From Candidatus Parcubacteria bacterium (GTDB lineage Bacteria > Patescibacteriota > Patescibacteriia > Patescibacteriales > UBA12075), in contig JAGLYP010000008.1 of NCBI GenBank assembly GCA_023132155.1, positions 4,846 to 68,845 on the forward strand: a stretch of DNA of 64,000 bases, given 5' to 3'. Position numbers and translations under genes: made by a program. Of this stretch, positions 60,266-62,858 are shown piece by piece (positions within the stretch are counted from its first letter, which is position 1; each line of letters starts with the position of its first letter). The notes beneath the pieces were generated by a model. It made no database searches. It saw nothing but the letters and a program-made list of their open reading frames with translations, and was not told where the DNA came from.

Positions 60266-61525
60266 CTATTTGGAACTAGCGCGTTTCATAATGTCATAAT
60301 TTATAAGCGCCATTCCTGTATCTACCTGTGTTCCCTCCGGTAGTACAAAGTCAGGAGTAATTTTGCCATTCTTGGCAATAATCGCCGCCCTGGACTGGTG
60401 TCCTATAAGCCAAAGTTTCAACCTGACTTCCATATTGCTATCAGCTTTTTGCAAAGCCATCTTGTAGGATGCTTCGCCTTCACCATCGTAAATGTCGGCA
60501 TCACGCTGATATTCAGCCGCCTCTTTCAAAATTGAAGACACTTTATTTCTGGCCTCAGCAGGAATACGCTCTTTTGCCGCGTTAATCTCACTTTGTATAA
60601 TGTCCGTAACGTTGACTACCTTTTGCTCATACTCGGATTTAACAACATTACGCTGACCAACAGCAATGGCGGTGGTTTCTTTAGCTGCATTCAATTCAGC
60701 TTCGGCAATACTGGCCACTTTACCCATCAAATTCGTCAATTTTCCGGTAATCTGATCTTTGATACTCTGATGATACTCAGGATCCGAAATCACGAACTGC
60801 GTAAACTTAACGTCAAAATCCTTTAGGGCATACTCTTTTCTCATTATTTCATTTTTGGTGCCCTGCTTGATTTTTAATTTAGACTTGCGCACTTGCTTCT
60901 TCTCACCGGTTGACAAAACAATGGTATCTGTATAAGTTTCTACCAAATACACTCCGTGGTTCAGCTGATCAAGCGCCCACTCGGTAAACTGCGCTTTGTT
61001 GGTTGTATAGCTTTCTTCCGCGCTCATAAGCGTTGAAGTTAAGGTCAAAACTTCTGTTACAAGGGGTTGAATTGCCCGATCGCGGAAATTATCCTGATCA
61101 CGGTATTGGATATGAAGTTTGGTAAATTGCTTCCTGCTTTTTTGCTTAGTCTCCTTGCTTGTTTCGTTATACCCGATTGTATAGCGCACAGATCCCGAAA
61201 CTCTGGCAGTACCGCCATCATTATAACGGACAGGCACGCTTTCATCACACCCTTCTCCTTCTGTTAAATCCTTGGAAAACCAAGATGTACTTGACTTGTC
61301 CCATGTATATGCCCTGTTTGCCCCGATATAATACCGACCGGGCTCCATAATAGCTTCAAATGAGCCACTTCCTCTTATCGGCTCAATCATAACGTAATTT
61401 CCAGCCACGTTATTGTTGATTGCGAACTTGTAACCGATAATAGCAACGAAAACAAGCCCCAAAATTATAATCCAGAGTTTGCTTACTTTTTTGTCTTTGC
61501 GTTCTCCTGTTTCATTAAATTTCAT
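60266..61525 (-). CDS. SPFH/flotillin-like membrane protein
   Basis: 419 aa with N-terminal TM LWIIILGLVFVAIIGY. The SPFH-like core is EPGRYYIG...VPVRYNDGGTARVSGSVRYTI. The Ala/Glu-rich coiled-coil C-terminal half resembles YqiK/flotillin. Confidence 0.55.
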   Translation of the reverse strand: MKFNETGERKDKKVSKLWIIILGLVFVAIIGYKFAINNNVAGNYVMIEPIRGSGSFEAIMEPGRYYIGANRAYTWDKSSTSWFSKDLTEGEGCDESVPVRYNDGGTARVSGSVRYTIGYNETSKETKQKSRKQFTKLHIQYRDQDNFRDRAIQPLVTEVLTLTSTLMSAEESYTTNKAQFTEWALDQLNHGVYLVETYTDTIVLSTGEKKQVRKSKLKIKQGTKNEIMRKEYALKDFDVKFTQFVISDPEYHQSIKDQITGKLTNLMGKVASIAEAELNAAKETTAIAVGQRNVVKSEYEQKVVNVTDIIQSEINAAKERIPAEARNKVSSILKEAAEYQRDADIYDGEGEASYKMALQKADSNMEVRLKLWLIGHQSRAAIIAKNGKITPDFVLPEGTQVDTGMALINYDIMKRASSK

Positions 61526-61580
61526 GTTTATTATCTCCTTTACATCTAAGATACTGAGAATACTCTCGTGTTAAAAAATG

Positions 61581-62858
61581 CTAATCAAATACAAGATCCA
61601 GACCAAGTTCTTTTCTCAACTGTTGCTCAATCTGAAATAAAACATTAACCCCGCCAGGCAGTTCATTGCTGTTTTGAGCTAACTTACTGGTAATAACCCC
61701 GGGAACAAGCTGCGCGCTTGAAAAAGCTGTTTGATACGCTTCCCATGCATGAATATAATAGTTCTTCTTCATGCTTAAAGCGCCATCAGCCAACAGAGCC
61801 AAACGTCGTTTTTCTGCTTTGCCTTTTCCCTTGGCAATCCATTGCTGTTTTTTGTTAAGCGCGGTTTGTTTATTTTCCATGGCTACGGATAGATCACGGT
61901 TGGCGGCAATAATTGCTTGTTCTTTTTTCTTTTGAAGATCAAGCACTATTTTTTCTTTTTCCTGCAGTTTTACATATTTAGCTTCAGCAATCATCTTTTC
62001 GCCGTCTGAAATAGCGGTCTTCTTTTCCTGTACCGCTTTTTCACCAGCTGATTTTACTTCTATGATCTTTGTCAAGAACCCTCTTTTTTTATCAATGAGT
62101 TTATCCAAACCGTCCAGATATACAATATCTTCGATGATAAATTGCTGCAGGTCAATACCAAACTTGGCAAGCACTACTTCTTTGCGCACAGGAATTTCTT
62201 GCCCATGATCGTTCTTATACGTTTTAATATCAACATATTCCTGAATAACCATTTTATCCTGATCATCCTCGGAAAAAACTTCTCTGGTCTTTTTTTCAAC
62301 GATATATATGCCGTTCTTTACCTGATCACCGGCCCACGTTGAAAACTGAGTACGAAGGGATGAATAACTTTCCTCCGACGACATAAGTGCCGCCGTCATA
62401 ACTACCGCCTCCTTGACCACCTGTGAATAAAGCTCCTGTTCCAGTCTTTGTTGATTGTTGAAAATTAACTTTATATGTTTCATGTCCTCATTACTTCTGG
62501 GCAAAACAAAACGCGCGCCCCCATAAACCTTGGCGCGACCGCCATCGTTAAAACGAACGATAAACGGCGGAGCAGAAACGTTTTCCGCGTCCGGTTTGTC
62601 ACTAAACTTATACGACGCTGCTGCCTTAAAATCATCAATTAACGCGAGCCCCTGATAATAAAAACCGGGTTCAAAGCGGGTAGTAATATCACCGTCCCAC
62701 CAGCCTTGATTAACCTGATAAATTCCCGAAGTATTTCGCTCAACCAAGCTAGCGGCATTAACCACTACGATTAAACAAAACACGACAACCATAATCCATG
62801 ACACAGTCTTTCCAACGCTTATGCGTCCGTTGGTCATAATAAAATCTTCTACTCTCAT
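61581..62858 (-). CDS. SPFH/flotillin-like membrane protein (paralog)
   Basis: 425 aa with TM WIMVVVFCLIVVVNAA. The core EPGFYYQG...FIVRFNDGGRAKVYGGARFVL...AALMSSEESYSSLRTQFSTWAGDQVKNGIYIVE aligns with 60266..61525. Confidence 0.55.
   Translation of the reverse strand: MRVEDFIMTNGRISVGKTVSWIMVVVFCLIVVVNAASLVERNTSGIYQVNQGWWDGDITTRFEPGFYYQGLALIDDFKAAASYKFSDKPDAENVSAPPFIVRFNDGGRAKVYGGARFVLPRSNEDMKHIKLIFNNQQRLEQELYSQVVKEAVVMTAALMSSEESYSSLRTQFSTWAGDQVKNGIYIVEKKTREVFSEDDQDKMVIQEYVDIKTYKNDHGQEIPVRKEVVLAKFGIDLQQFIIEDIVYLDGLDKLIDKKRGFLTKIIEVKSAGEKAVQEKKTAISDGEKMIAEAKYVKLQEKEKIVLDLQKKKEQAIIAANRDLSVAMENKQTALNKKQQWIAKGKGKAEKRRLALLADGALSMKKNYYIHAWEAYQTAFSSAQLVPGVITSKLAQNSNELPGGVNVLFQIEQQLRKELGLDLVFD

Follow-up and report, generated by a model that had tools for sequence, protein, structure and literature searches.

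Cages built from SPFH-domain proteins are a very active structural topic, and 2022–2026 structures of HflK/C, prohibitin, erlin, stomatin, flotillin and QmcA dominate the fold matches reported below. Most of what is understood about the function of these cages has come from the AAA+ proteases or ubiquitin ligases that are their clients. In E. coli, HflK and HflC (PDB 7vhq, 7wi3 and 9cz2) are two paralogous SPFH subunits, encoded side by side, and FtsH is the classical client of cages of this type. In eukaryotes, the SPFH hetero-oligomeric cages of erlin1/2 (with RNF170 and p97) and prohibitin 1/2 (with the m-AAA protease) engage a conjugation enzyme of the ubiquitin type and pass substrates to an AAA+ unfoldase, which for erlin serves the endoplasmic-reticulum-associated degradation (ERAD) of inositol 1,4,5-trisphosphate (IP3) receptors. 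The present study concerns a 64,000-nt stretch of contig JAGLYP010000008.1 from Candidatus Parcubacteria bacterium (the whole stretch is referred to as the window), in which an earlier note had described three SPFH/flotillin-like paralogs, here termed A, B and C. We report that A and B are SPFH membrane-scaffold proteins of the HflK/C- and prohibitin-like type with the full cage-forming architecture, and that they belong to a nine-gene cluster of Patescibacteria (Candidate Phyla Radiation, CPR) in which the conserved gene neighbours of a bacterial SPFH hetero-pair are a Clp unfoldase and a set of E1-type enzymes, and not FtsH. The cluster is apparently undescribed, and A and B apparently represent an SPFH pair of the HflK/C type that has been rewired, its partner being an E1/JAB/Clp module. 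Searches of an incomplete literature collection found neither a link between SPFH proteins and E1/E2/JAB operons of bacteria nor a description of a cluster of this kind in the CPR, which is absence of evidence only.

The three open reading frames (ORFs) lie on the minus strand in a gene run that spans 50.6–63.2 kb of the window, and pairwise comparison by BLASTP bore out their mutual similarity: A (60266..61525, 419 aa) and B (61581..62858, 425 aa) are 27% identical over 318 aa (E 7e-27), A and C (50676..51371, 231 aa) 26% identical over 149 aa (E 1e-12), and B and C 24% identical over 87 aa (E 1e-7). The shared motif core that had been proposed for all three stands for A and B, while C deviates from the consensus at several positions (RLNDGY, FMSTEEYR). 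As read from the translations, the first motif is VRYNDGGTARVSG in A, VRFNDGGRAKVYG in B and ARLNDGYLIEITG in C, the second is LMSAEESY, LMSSEESY and FMSTEEYR, respectively, and the third is WALDQLNHGVYLV, WAGDQVKNGIYIV and YVWDQLKYGRYVV, respectively. The expected N-terminal transmembrane (TM) helix was recovered as one hydrophobic segment in each protein (residues 18–36 in A, 21–39 in B and 7–25 or 13–31 in C); nearly all SPFH homologs likewise carry a single such segment near the N-terminus, with P0039 having a second. The two proteins with long coiled-coil tails are A and B, each with approximately 170 residues of long helices: A comprises a TM helix (residues 14–35), an SPFH domain (36–250) and coiled-coil helices (253–417), and B shares this arrangement, its BLASTP alignment to A running through the coiled-coil region to residue 359. 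C consists of a TM helix and an SPFH domain only, its stop codon falling exactly at the end of the SPFH domain, and it lacks the coiled-coil feature of a cage wall. The public annotation of A (KAU09_01310, P0001, 360 aa) has its start 59 codons further in than the orthologs indicate and therefore lacks the TM helix, which is present in every A ortholog. P0001 and P0013 correspond, each at 100% identity, to KAU09_01310 and KAU09_01315 of a Candidatus Parcubacteria metagenome-assembled genome. The longest ORF of C begins at a TTG codon at position 51473, and the recorded form is the 231-aa version that starts with ATG (P0051).

Membership of A in the SPFH family was established at the level of both profile and fold. 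The Pfam Band_7 profile (PF01145) matched A with 27.8 bits (threshold 23.6, E 3e-6), as had been predicted, and matched B with 16.7 bits, below the gathering threshold; 27 B homologs were collected, many of which match PF01145. The Pfam scan of C gave no match, and C was assigned through its similarity to A and to a phage family described below. A single-sequence search of the PDB with A was negative; a profile of 39 A and B homologs searched against the PDB returned HflC (E 0.003) and prohibitins as the only meaningful sequence matches. The AlphaFold2 (AF2) model of A, computed from the 39-homolog alignment, has a mean predicted local distance difference test score (pLDDT) of 81.7, rising to 87–95 over residues 21–300, and places an alpha/beta domain (residues 36–250) between the TM helix (14–35) and helices at 253–320, 325–361, 365–386 and 400–417. 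In a Foldseek search of this model against the PDB, all 43 matches at E <= 1e-3 were SPFH assemblies or vault, and thus the non-SPFH fold that would have spoken against the assignment did not emerge. The matches ranked in the order HflK/C (5e-9), erlin1/2, prohibitin, stomatin and QmcA, followed by flotillin and major vault protein, and the isolated stomatin SPFH domain superimposed on the model with a target-normalised TM-score of 0.74–0.75 (root-mean-square deviation 2.6–2.9). The description as flotillin-like was not upheld: flotillin ranks 26th and 33rd among the fold matches of A, behind HflK/C, erlin, prohibitin, stomatin and QmcA, and Pfam scans at E <= 1 returned Band_7 and no flotillin (Flot) domain.

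The closest curated sequence family is the phage family phrog_11908, whose function is listed as unknown in PHROGs and GenBank and which matched B at 2e-56 (nearly the full profile), A at 4e-28 and C at 4e-9. Relatives with 25–29% identity occur in 40 phage records, among them T5-like Vibrio phages, crAss-like Bacteroides phages, Aeromonas phages, Sinorhizobium phage phiN3 and a 462-kb uncultured phage, the phage members of the family being 26–29% identical to B. In Vibrio phage pVp-1 (JQ340389.1, 61985–63392; locus L021), a 52-aa single-TM ORF immediately precedes a single SPFH gene, an arrangement that echoes the 85-aa TM gene in front of B. In contrast to the present cluster, this single SPFH gene (pVp-1 being the one phage locus inspected) has no E1, JAB or Clp neighbours.

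Among structurally characterised systems, the resemblance to HflK/HflC–FtsH is the most extensive. In addition to the side-by-side arrangement of two paralogous SPFH genes, A and B share with HflK/HflC an N-terminal TM helix and an SPFH domain followed by CC1/CC2 helices, and the second half of this domain contains an insertion at the HflC position. An N-in/C-out topology like that of HflK/HflC is favoured for A and, less clearly, for B. HflK/C is the top fold match of A and HflC the top PDB sequence match (see above), and the functional partner of HflK/HflC, like the syntenic ATPase of the CPR cluster, is an AAA+ machine of the protein-degradation type. The two systems differ in that identity amounts to only 11–13%, in that the syntenic partners are a soluble ClpA-like ATPase and E1-, E2- and JAB-like enzymes rather than FtsH, and in that the CPR cluster adds a 2-TM and a small TM protein. 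The erlin and prohibitin cages, which occupy fold ranks 2–5, differ in being eukaryotic and, for the former, in employing true ubiquitin and a RING E3, whereas the candidate tag of the CPR cluster shows no beta-grasp fold; there is no evidence of common descent for the coupling.

To place A and B in their genomic context, contigs were fetched for homologs of A and B and, independently, for relatives of the E1-like protein (loci L001–L020, of which L004, L005, L012 and L014 are identical, as are L010 and L018), and the island proteins were compared by BLASTP with all ORFs of these loci. A fixed order was found, namely small TM protein, B, A, 2-TM protein, 144-aa protein (p144), 298-aa E2-like protein, 313-aa JAB-like protein, E1-like protein and ClpA-like ATPase. 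It is complete in L001, L003, L004/5/12/14, L007, L008, L010/18 and L011, and in L006, L016 and L017 it is preserved up to the contig boundary. The same order, found in searches starting from SPFH as well as from E1 proteins, is shared by at least eight independent contigs and is unchanged though protein identity drops to 24–35% and GC content ranges from 0.35 to 0.51. Every E1 relative that is more than 37% identical and lies on a sufficiently long contig has the SPFH pair upstream, and B is followed directly by A in all cluster loci. The proposed co-occurrence of the SPFH paralogs with E1/JAB genes in other genomes is thus strongly supported, the genes being colinear in the related loci. A and B are 25–28% identical to each other, compared with 30–35% between the most distant orthologs, which indicates that the A/B split is as old as the cluster itself. 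The family is very rare: among 5.8 billion proteins, A is represented by 12 protein clusters and B by 27, and at least three of 185,579 species-representative genomes carry it (a lower bound, from a pattern-based scan with 12 A orthologs); all named sources of the cluster are Patescibacteria genomes. In L001 (8135–11891), a locus of higher GC content, the stored gene calls place three cluster genes on the wrong strand, and six-frame BLASTP gives the normal plus-strand order of small TM protein, B, A and 2-TM protein.

The enzymatic half of the cluster is headed, with respect to annotation, by the E1-like adenylating enzyme (55357..57105, minus strand, 582 aa), which has ThiF, Cap2 and Atg7 profile support. 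It matches ThiF with 21.5 bits (1.4e-4, below the Pfam threshold) and, weakly (2e-4), the PADLOC models of Cap2-type E1-E2 proteins, and a profile of its orthologs matches the Atg7 adenylation domain (3e-5) and MccB (0.017). The invariant elements are GCGTxS, FSxYNPVRQ, DDN, two CxxC pairs and Cys524 between these pairs, FSxYNPVRQ being the Atg7-like version of the arginine-finger motif, and the profiles and motifs together identify an E1-type adenylation domain; the N-terminal half looks like a second, degenerate Rossmann domain. The JAB/JAMM-like protein (57109..58050, minus strand, 313 aa) was recognised by its motif, K-x-H-S-H-x7-8-S-x-G-D with an upstream acidic residue, which is invariant in seven orthologs and which in L007 reads HSHPGFGMGFLSSGD, close to the Rpn11 motif. 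The E2-like protein (58234..59130, minus strand, 298 aa) has a four-Cys zinc ribbon and, in its C-terminal region, an invariant His209 and Cys222 together with a YPxNWP...P stretch that recalls the E2 core; a Pfam scan of eight orthologs gave weak zinc-ribbon matches only. The last gene of the conserved order encodes a ClpA/ClpC-like double-ring AAA+ ATPase (53063..55378, minus strand, 771 aa) with an N-domain, D1 and D2 and without an M-domain; its match to ClpA is contiguous over residues 175–733, and its matches to ClpB and ClpC are split. An [ILV]-G-[FL] loop (IGF, LGF, VGF or GL) is kept in all six orthologs examined, at a position that we take to be that of the ClpP-docking IGL loop of E. 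coli ClpA.

The small protein p144 (59146..59580, minus strand, 144 aa) is predicted to comprise a Cys-rich all-beta domain and a disordered acidic tail. Its AF2 model has a pLDDT of 69 (80–88 in the core) and is all-beta, without the grasp helix. Cys27 and Cys29 (CxC) and Cys58 are invariant and probably form a zinc knuckle. The C-terminus is conserved as R-V-D-L-x-x-D-x-[FY]-Y followed by zero to two residues; it is preceded by an acidic low-complexity tail, and an invariant Gly lies approximately 18 residues from the end. A conserved end with a few extra residues resembles the pattern of ubiquitin-like protein (Ubl) precursors, and p144 is a candidate tag or E1 substrate. No other gene of the cluster was found to be a beta-grasp Ubl candidate.

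The cluster is divided into three terminator-delimited units (small TM protein–B–A; 2-TM protein–p144–E2-like protein; JAB-like protein–E1–Clp), as judged by structured gaps after A and after the E2-like gene. In the window, a 14-bp GC-rich hairpin with a T-run directly follows A (60204..60237, minus strand) and would act as a terminator or attenuator closing the first unit, while a GC-rich hairpin with a T-rich tract directly after the E2-like gene (58184..58223, minus strand) represents a second internal terminator. Nine loci were folded (the window, L001, L003, L004, L007, L008, L010, L016 and L017, with L006 in addition for the gap between A and the 2-TM gene): folding energies were -23 to -38 kcal/mol for the gap after A and -25 to -51 kcal/mol for that between the E2-like and JAB-like genes at every locus examined, compared with 0 to -8 kcal/mol for most other gaps, the main exceptions being the gap between the small TM gene and B in L003, L004 and L008 and that between the 2-TM gene and p144 in L008. 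The hairpin between the E2-like and JAB-like genes has a T-run in all nine loci, whereas the T-run after the A hairpin is absent or weak in L001, L004, L010 and L017; the positions of the hairpins are conserved between loci and their sequences diverge. The split between modules fits an abundant scaffold and scarcer enzymes. Upstream of the small TM gene, two overlapping sigma-70-like matches (63338..63378, minus strand; 10 of 12 consensus positions, a consensus match only) are a candidate promoter of the SPFH unit. The second hairpin is followed by approximately 100 nt of AT-rich spacer, within which a further long AT hairpin occurs in L003 and L007 and, in weaker form, in the window.

Two TM proteins accompany the SPFH pair. 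The small membrane protein (62885..63142, minus strand, 85 aa), encoded by the first gene of the cluster, has a hydrophobic N-terminal segment, and its orthologs lie directly upstream of B in L001, L003, L004/5/12/14, L007 and L017. The 2-TM protein (59602..60168, minus strand, 188 aa), which has colinear orthologs, combines a basic N-terminus, a conserved xPxP loop between the TM helices and a soluble C-terminal domain with the conserved tail D-I-N-x-x-L-L...G-x-x-G; it has no match in Pfam, PADLOC, NCBIfam or PHROG and is a candidate tether between the membrane module and the cytosolic enzymes. The non-enzymatic components other than the SPFH pair are without matches in Pfam, NCBIfam or PADLOC as a whole. 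Topology was predicted by the positive-inside rule, i.e. from the Lys and Arg residues flanking the TM helix: in 11 of 12 A orthologs, three to five such residues lie on the N-terminal side and zero to two on the C-terminal side, and the SPFH domains, like those of HflK/C, are most likely extracytoplasmic (N-in/C-out). Neither TM nor signal segments occur in the E1-, E2- and JAB-like proteins, p144 or the Clp ATPase, and with the SPFH domains predicted to lie outside, these enzymes would be cytosolic and not inside the cage.

Taken together, the structural and mechanistic picture that we favour, and to which we give nearly as much credence as doubt, is that of an outward-facing A/B hetero-oligomer tied through its TM partners to a cytosolic tagging and unfolding machinery. 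A and B would be the two subunits of an alternating hetero-oligomeric membrane ring or cage, like HflK/HflC, prohibitin 1/2 and erlin 1/2, and the separately terminated small TM–B–A unit would be the constant membrane module of the nine-gene Patescibacteria system. On the outer face of the membrane, the SPFH domains would fence off a patch holding the 2-TM and small TM proteins, which may serve as connectors, much as FtsH does with its own TM segments inside HflK/C; the 2-TM protein, if N-in and C-in, would expose its conserved loop to the exterior and offer a cytosolic domain for recruitment of the cytosolic module. The latter would comprise the Atg7/ThiF-type E1, the E2-like Cys protein, the JAMM-type peptidase, p144, whose disordered acidic tail with its conserved C-terminus is a likely E1 substrate or tag, and the ClpA-like unfoldase, which through its ClpP-docking-type loop may dock on ClpP. 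The net effect could be that tagged proteins are unfolded, degraded or remodelled at a particular place in the membrane, following the logic of HflK/C–FtsH and erlin1/2–RNF170–p97. The observed parts of this picture are the paralogy, the SPFH fold and architecture, the strict synteny, the rarity of the cluster and its internal terminators; the formation of the heteromer, its topology, the tethering, the conjugation chemistry, the coupling to ClpP and the biological role are all deductions.

Several observations weigh against the picture outlined above. The JAB label has the invariant JAMM motif as its basis; matches to Pfam and PDB profiles were not found, and hhalign against human Rpn11 aligned the motif (P = 0.007) at a probability of only 5.8%. 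Similarly, the 298-aa protein gave no Prok-E2 or UQ_con match in Pfam and no PDB sequence match, and its hhalign comparison with UbcH5B (0.8% probability) was not significant, so that it was rejected as a proven E2 and is referred to as E2-like by motif only. The p144 model matched no fold in the PDB or BFVD by Foldseek and showed no beta-grasp, and p144 lacks a terminal Gly; the label of ubiquitin-like protein was therefore rejected as unproven. Neither the window nor the related loci showed a ClpP gene. With respect to the membrane module, the A/B assembly is a prediction from sequence and from the model of A, and the topology is a prediction from the positive-inside rule; the charge bias at the TM flanks is weaker for B and ambiguous for many B orthologs, and an extracytoplasmic cage would be unusual in a presumably monoderm CPR cell. 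Furthermore, terminators between the modules could allow their independent expression, and stand-alone B-like SPFH genes occur in Elusimicrobia (L009) and Saccharibacteria (L013); B relatives without the enzymes, in these two loci and in phages, demonstrate that the SPFH fold alone does not imply the partnership.

The explanation that competes best, which we hold to be doubtful but not far-fetched, is an anti-phage or conflict system akin in logic to type II CBASS (Cap2/Cap3) and Bil/Bub, with the SPFH proteins as membrane sensor or effector; the effector would act by membrane perturbation or abortive infection, and its priming or regulation by the E1, E2-like and JAB-like proteins would run via the p144 tail, so that this explanation overlaps structurally with the one that we favour. 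In the CBASS, Bil and Bub systems, a single operon encodes an E1-type enzyme, a transferase that depends on Cys and a JAMM peptidase, a combination that the enzyme set of the cluster resembles in logic, and E1 and JAB trios are typical of defence systems. The best precedent for p144 comes from type II CBASS, in which the C-terminus activated by Cap2 belongs to a protein other than ubiquitin and lies in a disordered tail. Conversely, the CPR cluster has no cyclase and no beta-grasp Ubl, the conserved end of p144 is Tyr and not Gly, and the E1 motif FSxYNPVRQ is closest to that of Atg7; no paper was found, in the same incomplete literature collection, that links CBASS, Bil or Bub to SPFH proteins or a Clp ATPase. 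A role in defence would agree with the very patchy distribution (12 protein clusters for A, at least three species genomes), with flanking genes that differ at every locus and, in L008 and L010, with the adjoining runs of small unknown ORFs and an HTH_17 gene, although variable flanks are weak evidence, as gene order is generally poorly conserved in CPR genomes. The E1-like protein and the Clp ATPase have weak PADLOC matches (to Cap2 and to the DolB and PDC-M37B models, respectively), those of the latter reflecting generic AAA_2 similarity; in PADLOC-DB 2.0 no model matched the SPFH, 2-TM, p144, E2-like or JAB-like proteins, no catalogued defence system was recovered, and no recognisable nuclease, NADase or pore-former effector is present.

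Links to phages also enter into this comparison. The SPFH subfamily is shared with phages (phrog_11908), and a phage-like contig (Ga0222658_1000067, L020:9992–11809) carries a lone full-length E1 relative, 29% identical, that retains GAGTGS, FSKYNPVRQ and both CxxC pairs. Its neighbours are a PolA-type polymerase, a RecA-like protein, a nuclease and large tail-fibre-like ORFs, and SPFH, E2, JAB and Clp genes are absent beside it; this relative may serve the phage as a decoy or counter-measure, or may point to where the E1 came from. Against the reading as a conflict system, neither E1 nor A relatives were found on IMG/VR viral contigs.

A stronger version of the picture favoured here, which we regard as unlikely though worth stating, is a self-contained, membrane-sited "tag, unfold, degrade" pathway of the CPR, in which the Atg7-like E1 and a novel zinc-ribbon E2 would attach p144 as a disordered, Pup-like tag unrelated to ubiquitin at the patch delimited by A and B, and the tethered ClpA-like unfoldase would extract tagged material for ClpP. 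In such a pathway, p144 would be activated at its C-terminal Tyr after trimming by the JAMM peptidase, the targets might be proteins or lipids, and the logic would parallel that of eukaryotic ERAD and erlin. A functional analogy, and no more than that, is provided by the Pup–Mpa–proteasome system of actinobacteria, in which a disordered acidic tag is joined through its C-terminal end and is recognised by a dedicated AAA+ unfoldase docked to a compartmental protease; PafA is glutamine-synthetase-like, with unrelated ligase chemistry, and the Pup system has neither a membrane module nor SPFH proteins. If true, this would constitute a third independent form of bacterial protein tagging for degradation, after SsrA and Pup, and the first coupling of SPFH and ubiquitin-type components outside eukaryotes. 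The cluster in any case offers a compact, genetically defined system for asking how an SPFH scaffold selects clients and passes them on, and its very divergent E1/JAB/(E2) set, if acting on a Tyr-ending substrate without a ubiquitin fold, would widen bacterial E1 chemistry. For ultra-small CPR genomes, where each gene kept has its cost, the retention of a dedicated 10–12 kb system points to a role under strong selection, which could be defence or the control of surface and membrane proteins during episymbiosis.

The earlier note proposed a membrane microdomain or cage for the co-encoded enzymes; read as a cytoplasm-facing SPFH compartment in which the E1, JAB and Clp enzymes are enclosed or concentrated, this model is improbable in our assessment. 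It is consistent with the strict synteny, and cytoplasm-facing SPFH cages do exist, with QmcA, flotillin and stomatin among the fold matches of A. However, the best matches are HflK/C, in which the SPFH domains are periplasmic, and the charges in A orthologs lie on the N-terminal side of the TM helix in the HflK/C pattern; QmcA and YqiK show the opposite pattern. In addition, the 771-aa Clp ATPase would form a hexamer of approximately 0.5 MDa, possibly with ClpP attached, and its enclosure by an SPFH cage would be without precedent. With SPFH domains predicted to be extracytoplasmic and enzymes devoid of TM or signal segments, a cage around the co-encoded enzymes is unlikely.

We likewise think there is little chance that the cluster travels as cargo with a CPR prophage or mobile element that went unrecognised and serves that element, for example in superinfection exclusion or host takeover, with an SPFH pair of phage origin. 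Such an origin would explain why the match to phrog_11908 is far better than that to Pfam Band_7, why pVp-1 has the same arrangement of a small TM ORF and an SPFH gene and why an E1 homolog occurs on a phage contig; the island also has a GC content of 0.41–0.42, compared with 0.34–0.37 on its 3' side. Yet GC content varies widely across the whole window, no integrase, tRNA, capsid or terminase gene lies beside the island in the window, IMG/VR gave no match, and the genes next to the island there, S1 and FtsH, are housekeeping ones. Scans of the window for tRNAs and Rfam families, as element borders or riboswitches, returned nothing. Finally, that A and B are ordinary housekeeping SPFH proteins placed beside the enzyme genes by coincidence, as the stand-alone relatives (L009, L013) and the separation of the units by terminators might suggest, is very improbable and effectively refuted by the same gene order in at least eight independent contigs at 30–65% identity and GC contents of 0.35–0.51, reached from both the SPFH and the E1 side.

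Of the three SPFH genes counted earlier in the island, only A and B are conserved, and C proved to be an orphan. An exhaustive phmmer search of 1.84 billion representative proteins found only C itself below 1e-10 and no ortholog, the next matches being full-length A-type proteins. C scores 50–74 bits against A orthologs and 34–44 bits against B orthologs, and on account of these higher scores it is, in our reading, a recent, lineage-specific truncated duplicate of the A type that has lost the coiled-coil region, and not a core component; without coiled coils it cannot form a cage wall. A separate, independently truncated SPFH-like gene (233 aa) lies after the Clp gene in L003, on the opposite strand. 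Directly 3' of C, a 12-bp hairpin terminator (50626..50657, minus strand) marks the end of the island. FtsH is encoded at 47161–48975, 1.7 kb beyond C and with the S1 gene in between, an adjacency that is absent from all related loci. This proximity is probably coincidental, given that it is not conserved and that a terminator follows C, and it was rejected as a hint of an HflK/C-like partnership.

In the window, the third unit continues beyond the Clp gene with genes for a lipoprotein-like protein (52303..53043, minus strand, 246 aa) and a type IV pilin-like protein with an N_methyl motif (51662..52237, minus strand), both considered accessory, and then with C, ending at hairpin 50657–50626. 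In L007 (140–2299), the closest relative, an N_methyl gene and a homolog of the lipoprotein-like protein are located upstream of the cluster and not after the Clp gene; a lipoprotein-like homolog lies beside the cluster in this locus only, and within this sub-lineage the cluster may have an accessory connection with type IV pili or the cell surface. Elsewhere in the window, two giant ORFs of 4353 and 1756 aa stand back to back on the minus strand (12143–25204 and 25432–30702); very large surface proteins are common in CPR genomes. The region at 28001–42000 has a GC content of 0.29–0.34, compared with 0.35–0.44 elsewhere in the window, and the coding strand switches at approximately 31–39 kb.

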